Shown: one piece after another, positions 10,022-25,381 of the stretch
Position numbering within the stretch: the first letter of the stretch is position 1
Layout: every line of letters starts with the position of its first letter
NCBI RefSeq assembly: GCF_009931435.1
Contig: NZ_CP043414.1
From: Escherichia coli
GTDB lineage: Bacteria; Pseudomonadota; Gammaproteobacteria; Enterobacterales; Enterobacteriaceae
Strand: one strand, 5' to 3'
Length of the DNA: 64,000 bases
Position numbers and translations under genes: made by a program
Notes under the pieces: generated by a model
Told to the model about the DNA's origin: nothing
Seen by the model: only the letters and a program-made list of their open reading frames with translations
Database searches by the model: none

Positions 10022-11005
10022 ATGGAAGGTAAGTTAATTTTTTGTTCCGATGCAATACTACGGTTTCAGTCCGATTACGATGAAACCGCTGCCGTTCCAT
10101 TGCTATCCATCCAGAACGTCATAGCCGATACCGATCCGTTCTTTCTTCTCCGTTTCTTCCACCATACCGTTCTGATTGAAGAAGGAACAACGCTGGCAAG
10201 TATCTTTCTGGCAATAGAACCGTGGAAGGCTTTGTTAGCGGCTTATCTGGACAGAGATGTTGGTGCTTATATAGATGAGGTAAGAAAACCGTCCGGGCCA
10301 ACGACATGGGATATTGAATGGATTGGGATTGATCGTCGTAGCATGGTTTACCGCGCTTATAAACGTCAGGAGATGCAGGATGGAGAGGATTTTTCTGACT
10401 ATTTAAACCGGGAACGCGTTCTGACCGATGAATTTGAAATTGAAAGTGGCTGTGAGGCTTCTGGCTACATTAAAGGTGATAAAGAACGCTGGAGCATCAG
10501 TGGTGATGTTCACGAGATAAAGAATCTGCCTGTAATCCTCTATAGCAAACAGACATTGATGACTTCACCGAAAGACGGTTTGCTGAAGAAAAACGTATCG
10601 GGTGTGAAGAGTTCCAAGCACAGTTGCTTCGTTTATGGCGATACCTCGTTTTCATTGAGAGAGGTTATGGAAGCCATCTACATTAGCGGGCTGTTCTTCT
10701 ATGCGCCAAGAGACGCCGCCAGTAGTCTTGATGCGCTGAAAGCGAGTGTGGCTGGACTGGAAGACGAACTGACCGAGGTGCCTGAAACAGAATCGGATAA
10801 TAATGAAACAGATGAAGAACCTACCATCGTCGTAGCCGACGGTGCTTTTGATTCGCTCGCTGCTCACATGGAGTCTGAAAAAGCGGAGTGGCAATACATT
10901 AAGAAGTTGTGCCAGCAAGATAGCGAGCTGCCCATACGTATTGGTAGTATCAGAATAGCTGAGCCTGCGGAGCTATGTATTGGCGGGAAAATCTTACATG
11001 AATAG
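10022..11005 (+). CDS. Hypothetical protein (327 aa) with acidic C-terminal region; higher GC than neighbours
   Basis: Very strong RBS (AGGAGGAGGA) upstream of ATG 10022. Confidence 0.6.
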   Translation: MEGKLIFCSDAILRFQSDYDETAAVPLLSIQNVIADTDPFFLLRFFHHTVLIEEGTTLASIFLAIEPWKALLAAYLDRDVGAYIDEVRKPSGPTTWDIEWIGIDRRSMVYRAYKRQEMQDGEDFSDYLNRERVLTDEFEIESGCEASGYIKGDKERWSISGDVHEIKNLPVILYSKQTLMTSPKDGLLKKNVSGVKSSKHSCFVYGDTSFSLREVMEAIYISGLFFYAPRDAASSLDALKASVAGLEDELTEVPETESDNNETDEEPTIVVADGAFDSLAAHMESEKAEWQYIKKLCQQDSELPIRIGSIRIAEPAELCIGGKILHE

Positions 11006-11171: not shown

Positions 11172-12089
11172 TTGAACATTAACGCAACACCAGTATTAAT
11201 TACACTTGTCTACGAAGCGCTTTTAAGATCCTTTTGGCGTAAACCCGCACTCAAAAAATTTTTGTTATCGTCGCATATTTCTGAAAGCTTCATTTCAACT
11301 TGGAGAGAAGATGAATCAAAAAGAAATTTTTTAGATCGTTTGTTCCCTAAATTACAAAGTAGTGCAAAAGGAAAAAATGTTATCTGCCATATGGCAGTTA
11401 ATCTTTCTGAACAGACTTCTTTTCCTGATTTAAAAGGCTGGGAAGATTCTCTACAAATGATTCAATCTGCAACTGATGCCATAAAAGATTTAAAAAACTA
11501 TATAACAAAACAAAATGAAGAACATCAGACTGAAAAAGAAAAACAAGAGTTCAGAGCACGAGCAGAAAAAGAGAGAACTGAAATAAAACGCTCTGAGACG
11601 GATTTGATGAAATTAAAGAATGAATTTGAGTGTTTGCATAATGAAATAGGAACTCAAAATGGTGGCTACGCATTTGAAAAGTGGTTTTTTAAACTTGTAG
11701 ACTACTGTGAAATTGTCTGTAAAAAACCATATAAAACTAATGGTAGGCAAGTAGATGGAGCCATAACTATTGAAGGCACTACGTACCTTGTTGAATTAAA
11801 ATTTCAGAAAACACAGGCTGACGCCATCGACATCGACTCATTAAAAGCTAAAGTGAGTAAAATGGCTGATAACACGATGGCTGTAATGATTTCTGTATCA
11901 GGTTATTCCTCTGTTGCCATAACTGAATCATCGGGTAGTCGAACCCCTTTATTATTATTAGATTATAGCCATTTATATTTATTCTTGAGTGGTGGAATGA
12001 GATTTGATGAAATAATTACACGGATAAGACGCCATTCTTCACAAACAGGAGAATCTTACCTATCTGTAAATTCATTTGGTGGATTTTAA
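11172..12089 (+). CDS. Putative nuclease: N-terminal domain plus coiled coil plus C-terminal Mrr-like PD-(D/E)xK restriction-endonuclease fold
   Basis: C-terminal GYAFEKWFF...RQVDGAITIEGTTYLVELKFQK fits the Mrr G-x-x-FE / D / E-x-K pattern; apparent TTG start at 11172 with AGGA 7 nt upstream. Confidence 0.55.
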   Translation: MNINATPVLITLVYEALLRSFWRKPALKKFLLSSHISESFISTWREDESKRNFLDRLFPKLQSSAKGKNVICHMAVNLSEQTSFPDLKGWEDSLQMIQSATDAIKDLKNYITKQNEEHQTEKEKQEFRARAEKERTEIKRSETDLMKLKNEFECLHNEIGTQNGGYAFEKWFFKLVDYCEIVCKKPYKTNGRQVDGAITIEGTTYLVELKFQKTQADAIDIDSLKAKVSKMADNTMAVMISVSGYSSVAITESSGSRTPLLLLDYSHLYLFLSGGMRFDEIITRIRRHSSQTGESYLSVNSFGGF

Positions 12090-13392: not shown

Positions 13393-13464
13393 CCGCAACA
13401 ACTCTAGCCCTGACCGGATTAGGTCAAAAATTTAGGCACTTTGATTATCAGGATGGATAAGCAG

Positions 13465-13995
13465 ATGAAGAAGATTTTACTCGTTGCTGGCGCAGCTCTG
13501 GCACTGGCGGGATGTGGTGAGAAAGGTGAGTTTGAGAAAGCGATTAATGCCAAGATTGGGCAAGACAAATACTGCTTCTCGCTGGATAACAATAACACCA
13601 GCTTCCCTATCCGTCTTGCCAAGCCACTACTTGATTCGACTGGCACAGGGACGAATTCAGTGATCCTCGATGGTTTTATTGAGCAGGGCCTGATGGTTTT
13701 TGAGCAGGGTTATGATTCGAATGTATTAGGGATAACAGAGGAAGGCAAAAAAGCCAAAGTCTGGAGCACAACAGACGGTGCCTGTGTTGGTCGTCGTGCT
13801 GTTGACGATATTAAGGAATGGACTGAGCCGGGCAACGGTAATCAGAAAGTCGTTCGCGTGTCTTATACGTGGAAGCTGGTTGACGTTCCGGGCTGGATTG
13901 ACAAAAAAGCGTTCGCCAACGTCAAAGGAATGAATGAACCTGCTGATGGTGCAATAAATCTCGTTAAAACCAGTAATGGCTGGAGAGCTAACTAA
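13465..13995 (+). CDS. Lipoprotein, hypothetical (176 aa)
   Basis: Signal/lipobox MKKILLVAGAALALAGC. Confidence 0.6.
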   Translation: MKKILLVAGAALALAGCGEKGEFEKAINAKIGQDKYCFSLDNNNTSFPIRLAKPLLDSTGTGTNSVILDGFIEQGLMVFEQGYDSNVLGITEEGKKAKVWSTTDGACVGRRAVDDIKEWTEPGNGNQKVVRVSYTWKLVDVPGWIDKKAFANVKGMNEPADGAINLVKTSNGWRAN

Positions 13996-14087
13996 AAGGA
14001 TGCTGGATCGTTAAATGCCCCTGCTACGCTGTGGAAAGTGACAGAAGGGGCATGAATTGTATTTCATTTAATGTAGTGAATGATATT

Positions 14088-14663
14088 TTATTGTATCGAT
14101 TTGTTAGATACTTTCATCAATTTCTCTTGAATTTTTCTTATTCTTTCAAGTTCTTCAACAATGGGATTTTTCTCGCCTTCACTTTGCATGAAAGGGCTTA
14201 AGTCTATATTGTTTTTTTCAACAACTTCTTTATTCATATAACTGTACGTTGCGGTTATTGTAAATTGTTGTGGTAACGGATTTTTCGATTCTCCAAAAAT
14301 AACCCAACCTTGACCAAGGGCGAAGAATAACTCTTGATTGGGCGCTAAGCTATCAATAGTCGATGTAAAAATACTTGTTTCTTTTAGGTTTTTAGTTGGC
14401 TCATCGAACTGATAAAAATCCTTATCTAATTCTAATTTTACATTCAGGGCTGGTGTCTTACCGCTATTATAAATTTTCAGGTATAGGAATTGCGAGTGAG
14501 GTCTTACCATTGGCTGGATTATTATATAAGGACGAGACATTGCCTCGGTTTGCTCATTCATTATCTGAGCTGTTCGTTCGCTTATTCTCGACATCTTGTA
14601 TGTCAAAAATGCATAAATTCCTGTAATGATAACAAGAATTGCTGTAAGTATTTCCATTGTCAT
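14088..14663 (-). CDS. Single-pass membrane protein, hypothetical (191 aa)
   Basis: AGGAG RBS 6 nt upstream of ATG; N-terminal TM helix ILTAILVIITGIYAFLTY. Confidence 0.6.
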   Translation of the reverse strand: MTMEILTAILVIITGIYAFLTYKMSRISERTAQIMNEQTEAMSRPYIIIQPMVRPHSQFLYLKIYNSGKTPALNVKLELDKDFYQFDEPTKNLKETSIFTSTIDSLAPNQELFFALGQGWVIFGESKNPLPQQFTITATYSYMNKEVVEKNNIDLSPFMQSEGEKNPIVEELERIRKIQEKLMKVSNKSIQ

Positions 14664-14709
14664 GATTAACTCCTAAGTATAATGATTCATACCAGTAAGG
14701 TATAATATT

Positions 14710-15204
14710 TTAACTATTATTGCATTTTTTTCTGTTGAATAGTTGATTATATCCAAGTTCCATTTCTTCAATAAAATCTTCATTAAATGTTGGAAATCCA
14801 CACGCCAGTGGTTCTTTCCCTCGAATTTTGAATAAGTTATAAAGATAACTACTTTCTTTATATGCGACATGAATGGCAGGATATGGCCTATTTTTTATAA
14901 TCTTATTGTTTAGTTCCTTATCATTGATAATGTTATATTGATCCCCCGTTATATCAACTACAATATTATCTATCTCAAGCCAGTAATGGGTTATTTGACT
15001 ATTTTTTCCGGTAGTTGCGCTAACTCCTTTTAGCTCACATTCAGGCCATAGGGTCAGAAAATGGTAAGAAAGAAGCATTGAGGTAAGCTTACAACTCATA
15101 ACAGGAAAACAGTCTATAACAAGACTGGTGTTCTTTTTATCACAACTTTCAATTAATCTACGAAGCTTAACTGCTTCTTCTTTTATTTCGATAATGGTTG
15201 GCAA
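14710..15204 (-). CDS. Hypothetical cytoplasmic protein (164 aa), TTG start
   Basis: AGGGAG RBS 6 nt upstream of TTG 15204; no family recognised; contains one R-x5-H (RPYPAIH), a weak HEPN-like hint only. Confidence 0.5.
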   Translation of the reverse strand: MPTIIEIKEEAVKLRRLIESCDKKNTSLVIDCFPVMSCKLTSMLLSYHFLTLWPECELKGVSATTGKNSQITHYWLEIDNIVVDITGDQYNIINDKELNNKIIKNRPYPAIHVAYKESSYLYNLFKIRGKEPLACGFPTFNEDFIEEMELGYNQLFNRKKCNNS

Positions 15205-15282
15205 GATCAGCTCCCTAACTACATGATGTGCCGAGCATTTAATATATACGATACATAGGTCATTAAAAAGTATGTTCTAAAT

Positions 15283-16764
15283 TTAGTGTTTCTTATGGCT
15301 CGGTGGACTCAGTTTTGGCGCGCTTCCTTGCCTCATGTGTTCTGGTGGCATTGAAGGTGTGAGATTTATGCTTCTATTAACTTCCGGCTGTTCCTGATTA
15401 GGACGGCTTGGTAAACGTTTGATTTCATCAGGTGTTAATTTATAGTCACCATTGTTAAATTTGGTACGTTTTTCAAACTCCGAGCGTGGAACATTGACAC
15501 CCAGCACTTCATCATAGACATAGTTCTCTGCGATACGCTTATCATGGTCAGCATCAATGGTATCGGGTTTCCTTCTGGCCCATACAAATCTCTCTTTGAA
15601 GAAGCCCACCACAAGCAGTGTGAAACGCTTAAACAAACCATTTTGTCGTGGCTTAGTCTGTTTCCTACTTCTCATCGGAGCACGGTTTATCGCTCTGGTG
15701 TTTCGAGAAGAAGGGGTTTCCAGTTTAGTGGATGCAGTTGGTTCAGGAACAATCAGAACGGGAGATTTCTTCCCTGAAATACTTACTTTACTGACCTTAT
15801 TAGGATTACGGTATGATTTTGCTGCTGGTCTTCTGCTTGTAGTTGCTGTTGCCACAATCGGCTGTTGTTCTACTGTTACCGGGTCGTCTGGAAGAACAAT
15901 CTCTTCGGGGTCAGGAAGAATTGTTATCTCAAAGCTTCTGACATCAACAACGATCTCCAGTGGTAGCTCACTGAATGTGGTGTAGACCTTCTTGGCCTCT
16001 TCAATTTGATGATCGCGTTGAGCTTGTTCAACAGATCGCTGTTCCTGAGACTCTTTGTCATTCCATTTAGCACGATGAACACGTTGCATTGCCGGGCGGT
16101 TAGTTTCCGTTGCTTTGGCAAGCCAGAACGCTTTTTCTTCAGCGCTGAATGCTTCTTCTGCCTGAGCAAGGGCATCAGCACATTGAGTTCTGAGAGAACG
16201 GTGATCGATACGTTCTTCACTGCCTGCAGTCTCAAGGTAGCTGTTTGACATCGTGGCCCATGACTCACGCCACTGAACAACCATCTTCTTATCATTCCAG
16301 CTTCTGTCTTTTTTACCGAAGCCTTCGGGACCGATAGTTTTCAGGGTTAACATGACGTGAGCATGGGGATTCTTACCATCTAAATCGTGGAATGCGATAT
16401 CAGCAATCATTCCTTTATCAGCAAAGTTCTTCTGGCAGTATTCGGCAACTAATTTTTTCTTGTCATCATTGCTGAGTTCTACGGGAATAGCGACATCAAA
16501 ATAACGGGCTGTTTGACCATTGTTCTGGCGTTCCACTCTTTCAACTTCATTCCAGAGTGCTGACGAGCTTTCAACAATATGAGCAGGTGCGGAAACAGGG
16601 GCTAATATAATATGACCATGAAGATCTGTTCTGTGGCTGAAATCAAATGTCTCGCCAATGCGATCATCTTTAATACGTGTACGGGCATGGTAGGCAGCTT
16701 TCGCAACAGAAGTCATGCCTTCGCTTCGTTTCACAATTTTAAAATCCAGATGAAAAATCGCCAT
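15283..16764 (-). CDS. mobA: MobA/MobL-family (MOBQ) conjugative relaxase
   Basis: N-terminus MAIFHLDFKIVKRS...AKAAYHAR with candidate catalytic Tyr; three-His motif HDLDGKNPHAHVML (H-x-D-x4-N-x-H-x-H). Confidence 0.85.
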   Translation of the reverse strand: MAIFHLDFKIVKRSEGMTSVAKAAYHARTRIKDDRIGETFDFSHRTDLHGHIILAPVSAPAHIVESSSALWNEVERVERQNNGQTARYFDVAIPVELSNDDKKKLVAEYCQKNFADKGMIADIAFHDLDGKNPHAHVMLTLKTIGPEGFGKKDRSWNDKKMVVQWRESWATMSNSYLETAGSEERIDHRSLRTQCADALAQAEEAFSAEEKAFWLAKATETNRPAMQRVHRAKWNDKESQEQRSVEQAQRDHQIEEAKKVYTTFSELPLEIVVDVRSFEITILPDPEEIVLPDDPVTVEQQPIVATATTSRRPAAKSYRNPNKVSKVSISGKKSPVLIVPEPTASTKLETPSSRNTRAINRAPMRSRKQTKPRQNGLFKRFTLLVVGFFKERFVWARRKPDTIDADHDKRIAENYVYDEVLGVNVPRSEFEKRTKFNNGDYKLTPDEIKRLPSRPNQEQPEVNRSINLTPSMPPEHMRQGSAPKLSPPSHKKH

Positions 16765-17409
16765 TAAAAATATAACCTCAAATAAAAGTAATGCTGTTAG
16801 TTTTTCGTAAGAAAAACTTCGGGGTTGACGTTGACCTTGGTTTTACTTTTAGCCTGCGGCAGCAACCGTCGGTAGACCCCACACACTGCGTAGCAGTGTA
16901 TAGGTGGGCATTGTCTTTAAGAAAATAAGCCAATGTAAAATGCCCCTCTTATTAATTAATACGAAATATATGTATGGTTGTAAAATAATACGCCGGAATA
17001 AGCGGCGCAAACTGGATTAAAGGTGTAGGTTTCACGTCCACAGAACAAAAAGAGTAAAGAAAAGGCCCGTAAGGGCAAAAGAAATATTAATTATTCCCGC
17101 CGTAAGGCGGGATAGCTAAATTTGATGGAAAAAAACCAATAAAACAGAGAGTGTTATGTGTTGCACAATTCACAGGTTGAGATTGGAAAATAGAGTTTAA
17201 AATTGACAGGTGAAAATAAAAGCACAAATGCGCAAAAATAAGTAACGCGGAGAGTGCCAGATGTTTTTGGTTAGTGAATACTATCATATGCGTTGCACAT
17301 ATTTATAAAGAAATGTATCAGAATCATTCTCTCTGACAAAACAGACTAAATTTGACGTTATTTATCTTTGTGATAATTAAAATAAGATATAATAATAGAA
17401 GGAGGTAGT
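16765..17409. other. Candidate oriT region between divergent relaxase and mobC-like genes
   Basis: Hairpin acactgc-gta-gcagtgt at 16883-16899; two GTAA(G)-loop hairpins (gccc-gtaa-gggc, cccgcc-gtaa-ggcggg) at 17064-17108; geometry mirrors RSF1010 mobC-oriT-mobA. Confidence 0.4.
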
Positions 17410-20246: not shown

Positions 20247-21998
20247 TTATGAGGTTTGTAATAAAGAGAAGGCGTCATCCAATAGAATTTTCTCGCTATT
20301 GTTTATCTCTTTATTTAATAGAAATGATCTCACTGATTTTGCATTACCGATACAAATTTGTTTCGCTTTTCCTGCGAAATATTTCTTATTTATTTCATTG
20401 ATATCAAAAAGTGGATTGTCATTAATTTCGTTTTTTTTATATTCTGCTACGGTAAATAGCATTTGCTCATTATTACCAGATTCATTTCCTAAGAACTTAA
20501 AAATAAGATCTCTATTTCCAATATCTATATCTTCTTTGAATATAGCATCTAACAAAAATGGAAATTTATGGATTGTTTTTCTTTTATTGATTAATTTAAT
20601 AAAGGAAAAATGATAAGCCATGATTATTTTATGTAATTCAACCCCTTGGAAGGGGAAGGATGTAATGGAATAAAGATTTTGATACCTTGGATTATTAGGT
20701 ATTATTATCTTCAAAGCTTTTGCTTTTTCGCTGAAAATAGTTAAAAATTCCTTGTCAATGTTGTTTCGGAGAGAGTTAATTTGTGAATCTGTGAGTAGGT
20801 TGTCAATTTGGGTGTTAAGGTTTGATATTTTTTCGACATAATTAGCTTCTTTAATTTTAATATCATTTAAAATGGTGATATTTGCACGGTGATTAACCCA
20901 ATGGTCAAAGTCAATATTTTCGATTCTCGATTCTTTTAACACCTCATACTCAAGCTTTATTTTTTCACTATCGTGTTTGATCTTTCTTTCAACAGAATTT
21001 AATGATGACGAAACATTTTTAATTTCTTCAGTTATACGTTCTTTTTCTCGTAACGCATCGTTAATATCTTGAGTATAGATATATAATTGTCTAAGATCGC
21101 CGGGTAGCGTTTGTTCGCATACAGGACATGTGTCAACGCTGGGTTTTTGAAGTTTTAAATTTCGAATAGTTTGTAAAAGTACTTTTTGACGCCCACGTAA
21201 CATACTGAGTTTATTGCATAGTTTTTCATAATTAGCTTCTTCCGTAATCAGATTTTCTGCTAATATGTTGTATTTTTTTAAGTAATCAATTGCTTCCCCT
21301 TTGAATCGAGACTCTAATATCTCAGAGATTTTAAGAGAGCTATCTTTTGTTTTGTATTGAATTAATTGCTCTCTTTCATATTCAATTTGTTGTTTTTCTT
21401 TTTGCAACATATATTTTTGCAATCTGTCCGTACGATCTTTTATGCCTGCGTAGTAATCAAGGTAGTCATATTTGAAGTCTTTATAAAATCTATAATCACC
21501 TATTGATTCTCTTAGATAAACCCAACCAACAGATTGAGATATATAGAATGGCAAGAATGCAGCTTCTATCGGTGCATCAGTAAACTTAGTTTGGTTCTGT
21601 AATGTTAGATTAAAGTCAAATAAGTGGTTAAATAATTTTTTGTATCTTGCATATTCATATGAGTTATTTCCATTAATGCCATCAAACCGTAGGGGGACTC
21701 TATCATCAATGCGAACGACGAGAGTATCATCAAATCGAACAAATACAACCGTATGAGATGATTTTACTTTTATTATTTCACACTCAAGACGAAAGAGTAC
21801 TCTTTCTGTAAGAATGTCGTGCAAATTTTCTTTGGAATCATTAACACCCATTGTGTACAAAATTGATTGCATTAATGTACTTTTCCCTGATGTGTTCCTC
21901 CCGTGAATAATATTGACTGAGTCACCAAAATCAGTGCAAAAAAAACCTTTATTATTCATAGAGTATGCTAAAATGCTTTTCAGAATTAATTTAGACAT
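20247..21998 (-). CDS. SMC/Rad50-like ABC ATPase with coiled coil and CxxC hook (Lamassu LmuB-like)
   Basis: Walker A GRNTSGKST near N-terminus; long heptad-rich middle; CPVCEQ in mid-protein; start ATG 21998 with GAGGAA RBS overlaps upstream stop (ATGTCTAA). Confidence 0.65.
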   Translation of the reverse strand: MSKLILKSILAYSMNNKGFFCTDFGDSVNIIHGRNTSGKSTLMQSILYTMGVNDSKENLHDILTERVLFRLECEIIKVKSSHTVVFVRFDDTLVVRIDDRVPLRFDGINGNNSYEYARYKKLFNHLFDFNLTLQNQTKFTDAPIEAAFLPFYISQSVGWVYLRESIGDYRFYKDFKYDYLDYYAGIKDRTDRLQKYMLQKEKQQIEYEREQLIQYKTKDSSLKISEILESRFKGEAIDYLKKYNILAENLITEEANYEKLCNKLSMLRGRQKVLLQTIRNLKLQKPSVDTCPVCEQTLPGDLRQLYIYTQDINDALREKERITEEIKNVSSSLNSVERKIKHDSEKIKLEYEVLKESRIENIDFDHWVNHRANITILNDIKIKEANYVEKISNLNTQIDNLLTDSQINSLRNNIDKEFLTIFSEKAKALKIIIPNNPRYQNLYSITSFPFQGVELHKIIMAYHFSFIKLINKRKTIHKFPFLLDAIFKEDIDIGNRDLIFKFLGNESGNNEQMLFTVAEYKKNEINDNPLFDINEINKKYFAGKAKQICIGNAKSVRSFLLNKEINNSEKILLDDAFSLLQTS

Positions 21999-23079
21999 AC
22001 ATTCCTCTTGTCTCAACATATGCAGCTATTATCGCAAATGCAATCATGTGTTTTTCTAACCTTGAATTATATGTGTTAATATAAGTTTGATATAATTCAG
22101 TAATACAATCTGCTTCATCTGTATGTTTATAATCTATTTGTGTGTTTTCTGATACAAATTTATAAATCTTTTTGTATTCTACTTGTTGAAAATCTTTAAA
22201 AAAATCGAAACAGTTATCTAATAATTCTTGCGCTCTTCTTTTTATAGGGAGCTTAATTGATAATCCTTTCGCCAATTTATCTGCATGAGAACGCCAAAAG
22301 TTGAAAGCTTTTTTACTTTCTTGGAACATACTGAATGTTGCATCAATTTTTTGTTTGGTCAAACGCTTTGACCTATCTGTAAGTAAAGCATATCCAGCAT
22401 TATTATATGTTAACTCAACATCTTGCAATAAAGCCATTAGAGTTGTTATTACAGCGTCATGATCACTAACCTTACAACCTAGAACCTCAGTAGATAAACC
22501 TGTTAGCGTTCTTCTCCACCCTTTATAAGTTTGAGGAAGGTCAATGAAACTAAATTTTACATTAGAGAGTTGCTTAAAATCTGCAATTTCTCCATCTATT
22601 AGTTTTGATTGAATGTTTTCTTTGATTTCATCATGTAGATCAGAATAATTTTTAGAGATGTTTGTTACTTGTATTTTTTCTACTTTGCATTTTTTACCTT
22701 TTTCTTTCTTACCCTGAAGTATAATATTTCGATTTGTCAAGAAAGATAGAGTGTGTTTGTAATCATCAGATTTGGGGTGTTTATCGTTGATAAGTTCATT
22801 TCCAACAAGCGATATTTTTCCGATGATCTCACAAAATTTTTGATCCGTTTTCCAGTCATCTCTTGATTTTTTAGCTTGATAAGTATCAATGCGACTAATG
22901 TCACCATTTTCATCAACAAAGGCAAAAAGAAAATCTTCATGGTGTTCAACACATATAAAATAATCTAGCAATGGAGAGTTTAGTTTTTCGTAATCATCAA
23001 AAAGAAGGTATACAACACAACAACGTTGGAATGTATATCCTGAGCCTCCCTCAACTCCTGAGTTGACGCTTTCTGACAT
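21991..23079 (-). CDS. Mrr-like PD-(D/E)xK nuclease-domain protein (Lamassu LmuA-like effector, putative)
   Basis: N-terminal GYTFQ ... VEHHEDFLFAFVDENGD ... IDTYQAKK fits the Mrr-type G-x-x-FE / D / (Q/E)-x-K pattern; translationally coupled to the downstream ATPase. Confidence 0.5.
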   Translation of the reverse strand: MSESVNSGVEGGSGYTFQRCCVVYLLFDDYEKLNSPLLDYFICVEHHEDFLFAFVDENGDISRIDTYQAKKSRDDWKTDQKFCEIIGKISLVGNELINDKHPKSDDYKHTLSFLTNRNIILQGKKEKGKKCKVEKIQVTNISKNYSDLHDEIKENIQSKLIDGEIADFKQLSNVKFSFIDLPQTYKGWRRTLTGLSTEVLGCKVSDHDAVITTLMALLQDVELTYNNAGYALLTDRSKRLTKQKIDATFSMFQESKKAFNFWRSHADKLAKGLSIKLPIKRRAQELLDNCFDFFKDFQQVEYKKIYKFVSENTQIDYKHTDEADCITELYQTYINTYNSRLEKHMIAFAIIAAYVETRGMYV

Positions 23080-23624: not shown

Positions 23625-24854
23625 TCAAGCAGCCATAGCCCTATACTTTTGCGCCTTAACGTAATCTCCCCACCATTGCATAAGCACTTCTCGCTCCCCT
23701 AAATATTCAGCTCGATTGTAGGCTGCTATGATTTCAGTGCTTTTGGTATGGGCCAATGCTGCTTCAAGAACTTCTGTTCTGAATTTGCCACTCTCTTCGG
23801 CGGCTGTTCTGGCAATAGAACGCATACCATGAGCTACCAGTTCACCACCCAACCCCATACGAATCAATGCGGCGTTGGCTGTCTGCTCATGCATGTGGGC
23901 CAATGGTGTTTTTATGCTGGGAAATACCCATTCACGATGACCGCTGATAGGCTGCATGTTTTCCAGAATGCGAAGTGCCTCTTTGCTTAATGGCACTTTA
24001 TGAGGCCGTTTCATCTTCATAAACTCTGGTGGGATGTTCCAGATTTTATTCTCTGTATCGATGTCAGCCCAACGAGCACGAACAGCCTCACCGGGGCGAA
24101 CCCATGTCAGCAGTTGCCATTCAATCAGCATACGGGTTTCCAGACGGATGGATGCGTTTGCCAGTGCAATCATAAACCGGGGGATTTCGCTTGGTGGTAA
24201 TGCTGGCATATTTTGTTTTTTGGGCTTACTGAAACGTTGACCAAGGTTGTCGGCTGGGTTGAACTCAATGAGTTCTTCTGTGGCAGCATAGCGAAAAATT
24301 TCATTCAGGCGGGAAATGATGCGACGTAGAGTTTCAAGCACACCCCGTTGTTCAATTGGGTCGAGATGCTGCTTGAGCATTTTGGGGCGGATCTCTTTGA
24401 TAGGGACATCACCCAGAGTGGGAAAGATGTTCCGTTCAAGGCTACGCCAGATGTCTTCTGCATGATCTTGGGATATACCGGAAGTCTTAATCTTTTCATC
24501 CAACCACTTTCTTGCAACAGCCTGTAGCGTGTTTTCAGTCGCATCTTTTAGTGCATTGGCTTTTTCGTTGTTATGGACTTGAGGATCGATACCGTTGGCA
24601 AGTAGGGAGAGATACTCATCCCGCAAAGTTCGTGCCTTAGCCAAGGTAAGGTGAGGGTAGGTTCCAAGACTCATTTTTGTGCGTTTTTTGGTCACTGGCA
24701 CTGAATACCTGAAATACCAGTTTTTCTTCCCTCCTTTTGTGTCTGGCGCTATGCGTAGCAGTAATCCATCTCCATCAAAGAGGTTGATTTCCTTATCGCC
24801 GGGTTTGGTATTTTTGATTTCAGTATCAGTAAGTTTTTTTGCGAGCTTTGCCAT
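23625..24854 (-). CDS. intA: P4-type tyrosine integrase (IntA-like) adjacent to ssrA
   Basis: 409 aa; C-terminal catalytic region ...VAHGMRSIARTA...ALAHT...AAYNRAEY; sits directly downstream of the tmRNA 3' end as in CP4-57. Confidence 0.9.
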   Translation of the reverse strand: MAKLAKKLTDTEIKNTKPGDKEINLFDGDGLLLRIAPDTKGGKKNWYFRYSVPVTKKRTKMSLGTYPHLTLAKARTLRDEYLSLLANGIDPQVHNNEKANALKDATENTLQAVARKWLDEKIKTSGISQDHAEDIWRSLERNIFPTLGDVPIKEIRPKMLKQHLDPIEQRGVLETLRRIISRLNEIFRYAATEELIEFNPADNLGQRFSKPKKQNMPALPPSEIPRFMIALANASIRLETRMLIEWQLLTWVRPGEAVRARWADIDTENKIWNIPPEFMKMKRPHKVPLSKEALRILENMQPISGHREWVFPSIKTPLAHMHEQTANAALIRMGLGGELVAHGMRSIARTAAEESGKFRTEVLEAALAHTKSTEIIAAYNRAEYLGEREVLMQWWGDYVKAQKYRAMAA

Positions 24855-25018: not shown

Positions 25019-25381
25019 TGGTGGAGCTGGCGGGAGTTGAACCCGCGTCCGAAATTCCTACATCCTCGGTACTACATGCTTAGTCAGTCTTTACATTCGC
25101 TTGCCAGCTGCGGACGGACACGCCACTAACAAACTAGCCTGATTAAGTTTTAACGCTTCAACCCCAGGCAGGGCTTCCACGCGATCTCTTTTGGGTTTGA
25201 CCTCTCTTGATCCCCGTCCTAAGAGCGGAGGCTAGGGAGAGAGGGCTCTAAGCAGGTTATTAAGCTGCTAAAGCGTAGTTTTCGTCGTTTGCGACTATTT
25301 TTTGCGGCTTTTTACGAGGCCAACCGCCCCTCGGCATGCACCTTGGGTTTCGCAAATCCCGTCGAATCCAGAATCAGCCCC
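25019..25381 (-). ncRNA. ssrA: tmRNA (SsrA), 363 nt
   Basis: Reverse complement reads GGGGCUGAUUCUGGAUUCGACGGG ... GCAAACGACGAAAACUACGCUUUAGCAGCUUAA (tag reading frame) ... GGUUCAACUCCCGCCAGCUCCACCA. Confidence 0.97.

Follow-up and report, generated by a model that had tools for sequence, protein, structure and literature searches.

Mobilisable genomic islands of the ROD21-like (EARL) family have been described previously (PMC6035254; PMC3198454). In ROD21, the interval between the genes for the MobQ relaxase and the SEN1982 lipoprotein carries SEN1981 and SEN1981A (PMC3198454, Table 1), and the corresponding interval of ICEKp258.2 carries a TPR gene and a TIR gene (PMC10763509, Table 1). Here we describe two adjacent genes, called A and B below, that occupy this interval in an Escherichia coli island. 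They lie within a 64,000-nt stretch of contig NZ_CP043414.1, which we refer to as the window and from whose first letter all positions are counted. A and B share both the MobQ–SEN1982 position and the island family with the ROD21 and CFT073/Nissle islands (PMC3198454; PMC6035254), but the gene content differs, and neither protein is related to SEN1981 or to the TIR proteins. The two genes and the boundaries of the interval are as follows.

15204..14710, minus strand: gene A, 164 aa, TTG start (open reading frame (ORF) list and sequence)
14663..14088, minus strand: gene B, 191 aa, ATG start (ORF list and sequence)
16764..15283, minus strand: MobQ-family relaxase gene (mobQ), left boundary (NCBIfam NF041496, 2e-74, 249.7 bits, cut-off 200)
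13441..13995, plus strand: SEN1982-family lipoprotein gene, right boundary (ORF; RefSeq name of orthologue)

The closest named relatives of protein A are the McjB-C/B2 leader peptidases (PF13471), which have an alpha/beta papain-like core of about 150 aa. In them, as in A, the Cys that opens a helix is followed by strands carrying H-x-W-x-E and then D-x-T. However, A scores below significance for PF13471 and PF01841, has no lasso-peptide genes nearby and occurs as a solitary gene on islands, cassettes and transposons. A second point of comparison, LapG and the bacterial transglutaminase-like cysteine proteinases (PDB 4fgo), shares 11% sequence identity with A. LapG is periplasmic, calcium-dependent and partnered by LapD and LapA, whereas A lacks such partners and is placed in the cytosol because it has no hydrophobic segment. 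The YunG family (PF24585) gives a weak, consistent match across the His–Asp strands of A, but this match is below significance, and the YunG model, at 116 positions, is shorter and comes without an assigned function. Protein B is linked through its orthologue to DUF8453, a label that carries no function. Operons pairing a bacterial gasdermin with a protease offer a possible functional analogy for the gene order, in which the cysteine protease comes first and a membrane-active protein ending in a short conserved segment comes second. In those operons, however, the proteases are caspase-, CHAT- or subtilisin-like whereas A is transglutaminase-like, and the A–B pair is not co-conserved. We rejected B as a gasdermin: it is modelled as an immunoglobulin (Ig)-like sandwich with a true transmembrane (TM) anchor, and no gasdermin fold was found. 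The superfamily of A, the DUF of B and the island family are already on record, and the novelty of the locus is modest.

We favour reading A and B as two autonomous accessory cargo genes, each serving conflict between genetic elements, and put the chances of this reading at about even. Judged by the company that each gene keeps alone, both are most likely of the conflict type. We lean towards anti-phage defence or exclusion by the island, to the benefit of its host, and less towards counter-defence. A first-pass annotation, made from the letters of the window, had instead likened the pair to a two-component abortive-infection or exclusion module with a membrane effector, and had named co-conservation of the pair across genomes as the test of that idea. 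The pair proved not to be co-conserved, and A and B are for this reason best read as two autonomous genes lying side by side.

Scanning metagenomes for B yielded 80 loci, 55 of them informative in having at least 600 bp of upstream sequence. A was missing at 51 of these 55 loci and present at 4, all of which were EARL islands with relaxase and lipoprotein genes. The immediate neighbours of B were correspondingly diverse, with 125 of them falling into 102 clusters. Genomes of Vibrio, Halomonas and Rhodocyclaceae likewise have B without A, as does every non-EARL genome examined; B is solitary and adjoins an insertion sequence in Rhodocyclaceae, adjoins YoeB/YefM in Halomonas, and on one contig lies downstream of glmS, the attTn7 position. 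The B proteins of Vibrio and Halomonas are 77–78% identical to that of the window, against 79–81% for those of diverged EARL islands, in which the flanking relaxase and lipoprotein are only 54–59% identical. With the Vibrio and Halomonas proteins about as close as those of diverged EARL islands, we conclude that B moves on its own. A recurrent partner of B in these other settings was considered and rejected, as the 219-aa (Vibrio) and 221-aa (locus L050) genes 3' of B are unrelated.

The distribution of A tells the same story from the other side. A genome scan at ≥47% identity returned 22 A loci, and B was present at one (Yersinia aleksiciae). Among E. coli genomes, 123 carry A, 53 without B and 70 with it. 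A lies directly after P4-like integrases in satellite-like islands (in the order int, A, inovirus Gp2, DUF3987, AlpA) and is found in Tn7-CAST cargo; an A-like gene without B sits in a Vibrio chromosomal integron cassette. In EARL islands, A is found with other downstream genes and often between opposite-strand genes. We therefore found neither the co-occurrence nor the adjacency across unrelated contexts that would define a two-gene defence system.

Protein A belongs to an unnamed, very widespread branch of the transglutaminase-like cysteine protease superfamily. A profile search retrieved 2577 cluster representatives at E ≤ 1e-3 (clusters at 50% identity, about 2,600), and nearly all of the 150 best-scoring listed representatives are single-domain proteins of about 100–200 aa. 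Against Pfam, A itself gave only the weak YunG match (independent E-value 0.0022, residues 66–111), which recurred at E ≤ 0.1 in 39 of 40 close homologues. When 40 superfamily members were searched, one matched Transglut_core (1.4e-5) and one Transglut_core3 (6.2e-4); at E ≤ 0.1, Transglut_core (PF01841) and Transglut_core3 (PF13471) were each matched by 7 of the 40. The structural model of A has the alpha/beta papain-like core expected of the transglutaminase-like superfamily, and its fold matches include Cif, SseI, OspI and NAT. Neither A (NCBIfam and PADLOC v2, the latter at E ≤ 0.1) nor four distant A-like proteins (PADLOC v2, E ≤ 0.1) found a match, and profiles of A and B searched against PDB sequences returned nothing below E 0.3. 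Against PHROGs, both proteins gave weak matches only, to families without assigned function. No transglutaminase-like defence system was found in the literature searched.

Conservation was compared across Gammaproteobacteria, Firmicutes and Pseudomonas. Residues R15, F33, P34, C38, H73, W75, D84, T86, G87, D88 and Q89 are invariant or nearly so; among them, H73 and D84 never vary, and at least 90% of sequences keep C38. These three residues form the predicted triad.

15093-15091, minus strand: Cys38 of A
14988-14986, minus strand: His73 of A
14955-14953, minus strand: Asp84 of A

In the model, C38 starts a helix (38–52), H73 starts a strand (73–78) and D84 ends the next (81–85), a layout that is canonical for papain and transglutaminases. 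In A, the motif 'HxWLE ... DITGDQ' parallels the 'HAWxE ... DPT' signature. On this structural prediction, A is very probably an active Cys-His-Asp enzyme. The first-pass annotation had noted a faint HEPN-like hint in RPYPAIH, which did not hold up: the segment is missing in distant homologues, is modelled at a predicted local distance difference test score (pLDDT) below 50, and belongs to an alpha/beta rather than an all-helical protein. We rejected a HEPN nuclease, with R106 and H112 in a non-conserved, low-confidence segment of a protein of the wrong fold.

Some relatives of A occur in settings worth recording in their own right. Pseudomonas sp. LS-2 (L038:5777-6732) carries two tandem A-like paralogues directly after a Dcm-type cytosine methyltransferase gene. 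In Yersinia thracica (L017:5458-5922), a gene for a 154-aa papain-like protein with GCG...HW...YDP motifs overlaps the stop of A by 4 nt, and in Endozoicomonas (L022:7841-8329) the gene on the 3' side of A also encodes a papain-like enzyme, this one LRAT/NlpC-like, with an 'NCEHF' motif and TM helices at its C-terminus.

Protein B is named by its E. coli orthologue, 98.9% identical, which RefSeq labels a 'DUF8453 domain-containing protein'. B had no match in NCBIfam, in PADLOC v2 (E ≤ 0.1) or in Pfam, whose searched release holds no DUF8453 model, and we found no mention of DUF8453 in the literature searched. Its single hydrophobic segment spans residues 1–23 (maximum Kyte-Doolittle value 2.06 in a 19-residue window), which together with the lack of any such segment in A bears out the first-pass description of a soluble protein followed by a single-pass membrane protein. 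An AlphaFold2 model (pLDDT 84) shows a long N-terminal helix and the following parts.

14654-14598, minus strand: TM helix of B, about residues 4-22
14525-14202, minus strand: Ig-like beta-sandwich of B, residues 47-154
14165-14094, minus strand: conserved C-terminal helix of B, residues 167-190, after a conserved linker

The linker (residues 154–167) is strongly conserved and modelled with low confidence. The hydrophobic helix has no positive charge ahead of it and is followed by K23, R26 and R30, a distribution that under the positive-inside rule suggests that B is an N-out/C-in bitopic inner-membrane protein with its sandwich in the cytosol.

From these folds we infer how the two proteins might work. 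As a member of the transglutaminase-like cysteine protease superfamily, A would work alone in the cytosol: Cys38, at a helix N-terminus, would be the residue that attacks an amide bond in a target protein or peptide, with the triad completed by His73 and Asp84 from the next two strands. The bond attacked might be a peptide bond or that of a Gln side chain, and acyl transfer is a further possibility. In B, the cytosolic Ig-like beta-sandwich and conserved C-terminal helix may serve at the membrane to sense a partner or to bind it. The neighbourhoods of each gene, taken separately, point towards conflict. Close to distant A-like genes lie, among others, HerA+DUF4297, a gene for a BnzB-like protein and one for a Dcm methylase, and A itself lies near TIR and macro-domain genes in one EARL slot; B has among its neighbours genes for a PglX-like methylase, an HNH nuclease, DEDDh exonucleases and a ThsB-like TIR protein. 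A collection of 50,697 phage genomes yielded neither gene, and among 72,556 plasmids tblastn gave three weak matches for A (≤32% identity) and one for B (27% identity). This absence from phages and near-absence from plasmids speak against phage-borne counter-defence and against roles in conjugation or exclusion, and fit chromosomal-island cargo better.

The interval that holds A and B points the same way. Relaxase and lipoprotein flanks were matched in 656 of 5,426 complete E. coli genomes, and only 70 of them carry A and B. Other strains have in their place a 380-aa hypothetical protein, a 197-aa protein with a RES NAD+ phosphorylase, or a DUF2971 protein; Nissle 1917 carries tcpC, a second TIR gene and a macro-domain gene, and a further version reads GTPase, hypothetical protein, A, TIR and macro. 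Because its contents vary in this way between strains and islands, we regard the mobQ–lipoprotein gap as a swap-in cargo slot. It is rich in NAD-targeting, conflict-type genes, and the earlier suggestion that the location suits such genes was well placed, the slot elsewhere being filled by TcpC/TIR/macro, a RES NADase or DUF2971. In uropathogenic E. coli, the slot pinned down here carries tcpC, a gene for virulence and NADase function, and it should be useful for mining further conflict genes. What looked like a mystery operon thus becomes two testable single-gene candidates: B is a broadly transferred membrane protein, and A and B recur where bacteria keep immune genes. If either protects against phage, a small and easily studied system would be added; if not, they would be ordinary island cargo.

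Several observations weigh against autonomous conflict genes. The defence role is argued solely through guilt by association, since A and B match nothing in PADLOC or NCBIfam. Several B homologues lie among housekeeping genes. In oral Streptococcus (loci L043, L045, L046 and L049), distant A-like genes of about 25–28% identity keep the triad and follow parE at a distance of 3 nt in several species, a conserved and apparently core-genome position that differs from the island settings. Neither context is defence-like. The topology proposed for B comes from the positive-inside rule. Concerning autonomy itself, B without A was never seen in E. coli, and the A–B order is kept in EARL lineages in which A is only 68% identical (68–74% for A and 79–81% for B), so some functional link between the two is possible.

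A link of this kind is the core of a two-component abortive-infection system, which we consider unlikely. A would sense infection and cleave B, for instance in the linker at residues 154–167, and with its C-terminal helix freed or rearranged by the cut, the membrane-anchored B would oligomerise and damage the membrane, following the logic of a protease and its gasdermin. Besides the conserved order and the constant presence of A alongside B in E. coli, such a system would account for two adjacent, co-oriented genes 46 nt apart, and for a linker that is strongly conserved, of low model confidence and placed just before a conserved helix. In a broader version, A would be the constant trigger of interchangeable effectors. 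Vibrio sp. Y2-5 bears on this version: its chromosomal integron cassette array (L034:5797-8254), with Vibrio cholerae repeat-like repeats of about 120 nt, holds a cassette between the repeats at 5797-5916 and 8135-8254 that encodes an HNH-like protein (304 aa), an A-like protein (172 aa) and a 208-aa N-terminal-TM protein not homologous to B. Effector-like genes 3' of A elsewhere encode a PD-(D/E)xK-like protein of 588 aa, an HNH-like protein of 364 aa and an LRAT-like protein with TM helices. Even so, we see only a slim chance that abortive-infection modules gated by a protease form a new class with A as its defining member, with DUF8453 as the effector here, an N-terminal-TM protein plus HNH in Vibrio, and PD-(D/E)xK- or LRAT-like proteins elsewhere. 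Both versions must contend with the 51 of 55 metagenomic loci and all the non-EARL genomes in which B lacks A, with the many islands in which A stands alone between opposite-strand genes, and with neighbours of A that have no family in common. A counter-defence role is also unlikely. Here A would inactivate an immune protein of the host or of a rival element by proteolysis, deamidation or acylation, and B would be unrelated cargo. Papain-like deamidases and acyltransferases do modify protein targets, and A is small, predicted to be enzymatic, stand-alone, and found at element edges beside integrase or relaxase genes. But A is absent from the phage genomes and nearly so from the plasmids, both places where counter-defence genes are common. 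It occurs in cassettes of integrons, in the cargo of Tn7 and in int-adjacent slots of the satellite type, all of which usually carry defence rather than counter-defence genes.

The remaining explanations fare less well. That the pair assists transfer of the island, with B as an entry- or surface-exclusion protein and A as a relaxosome or establishment factor expressed from the mobQ operon, strikes us as improbable. Exclusion proteins are small inner-membrane proteins, the genes lie directly 3' of mobQ with no promoter called between, and in other islands A also follows integrase genes directly. Yet the plasmids that all but lack A and B include many of the MOBQ type, most EARL islands do without A and B while keeping mobQ, traD and pilin genes, B occurs in non-mobilisable chromosomal contexts, and A-like genes of Firmicutes lie near parE, dcm or herA. 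We did not find A or B to have the marks of a relaxosome accessory or conjugative entry-exclusion protein. A secreted virulence effector, with A acting on host cells as a Cif/SseI/OspI-like deamidase or protease, would suit a slot that holds tcpC in Nissle/CFT073-type islands (PMC3198454); this is very improbable for a protein that has no secretion signal and no secretion system encoded nearby, and whose family extends broadly through marine and free-living bacteria and the Firmicutes. We give hardly any credence to A as a leader peptidase for a lasso peptide, a ribosomally synthesized and post-translationally modified peptide (RiPP), or as a remnant of such a cluster. The idea draws on the UniProt label of close homologues ('McjB C-terminal domain-containing'), on the Transglut_core3 matches of some family members and on the size of A, which equals that of split B2 proteins. 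An asparagine-synthetase-like cyclase, a PqqD-like RiPP recognition element and a precursor were all missing beside A, in the window and at all of more than 30 loci examined, and we rejected a lasso-peptide cluster on these grounds.

Turning back from these alternatives to A and B as separate cargo genes, their local organisation is simple. Both are real genes rather than chance ORFs, as shown by hundreds of full-length homologues for each, and RefSeq annotates the same two coding sequences in E. coli DNA that is 96.8% identical. As the first-pass annotation had it, the two genes adjoin the relaxase gene, between its 3' end and the lipoprotein gene; the ORF list places both on the minus strand. 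Its reading of strong ribosome-binding sites (RBSs) and low GC also stands. No in-frame start lies further 5' of A, and A homologues start at the same residue. GC content is 0.323 for A and 0.340 for B, compared with 0.447 for mobQ, 0.468 for the lipoprotein gene and 0.512 for the core genome. The signals around the genes are listed below.

15211..15216, minus strand: RBS of A, AGGGAG, 6-nt spacer to TTG (read from sequence)
14670..14674, minus strand: RBS of B, AGGAG, 6-nt spacer to ATG (read from sequence)
14015..14053, no strand: inverted repeat with 11-nt arms and a 17-nt loop, in the gap where B and the lipoprotein gene end tail to tail

A follows mobQ directly after a gap of 78 nt, B follows A after 46 nt, and B is convergent with the lipoprotein gene. 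The inverted repeat at 14015-14053 is a candidate bidirectional terminator, with a weak T-run on the minus strand. No promoter-like site was called on the minus strand between mobQ and A; this, the short gaps and the inverted repeat after B make read-through from mobQ into A and B plausible. A and B are probably co-transcribed, probably by read-through from the relaxase transcript.

The host element is, by its sequence features, a ROD21-like (EARL) mobilisable island of E. coli integrated at ssrA. A P4-like integrase gene (23625-24854; PRK09692 match, 1.9e-134) lies beside the transfer-messenger RNA (tmRNA) gene ssrA (25019-25381); the AT-rich block terminates at this integrase gene, and in the core flank the identity to E. 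coli is 99.5%. From relaxase to lipoprotein (window 13400-16800), DNA identity to E. coli EARL islands is 93–97%. The matching E. coli islands are annotated with TraD, bfpA/pilS, pilV, H-NS, DUF4756 and DUF6387 genes, and the window's own TraD-like and pilin ORFs adjoin the relaxase–lipoprotein stretch in the same order. The element thus has the set of features by which EARL islands are recognised: a P4-like integrase at a tRNA or tmRNA gene, a MobQ relaxase, a TraD homologue and type IV pilin genes. Its insertion site is ssrA, and its closest E. coli relatives are instead at tRNA-Asn. One EARL relaxase/lipoprotein region with different slot content (CP088875.1, 133053-136743) is on a 393-kb E. 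coli 'non-mobilizable plasmid', an odd placement for an otherwise chromosomal island that may reflect an assembly or labelling issue.

Other parts of the window carry further genes of note. A Lamassu type I defence pair lies between pilV and the island integrase (20247-23079, minus strand), comprising LmuA/DUF4297 at 21991-23079 (PADLOC 3e-137) and LmuB at 20247-22019 (2e-224). The pair occupies another cargo slot of the island, the second, and its presence is in keeping with a conflict role for A and B. On the plus strand the island has two more ORFs that lack annotation, at 11172-12089 (305 aa) and 10022-11005 (327 aa). The 305-aa protein gave weak matches to the PADLOC candidates PDC-S02 and PDC-M29B (E about 5e-3), and the orthologous position in strain WL297 is occupied by SIR2 and TIR genes. 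To the left of the AT-rich island segment, at 735-5396 on the plus strand and with GC near 0.5, is a gene for an autotransporter adhesin of the AIDA-I/Ag43 type, whose 1553-aa product contains an O-heptosyl-target repeat region.

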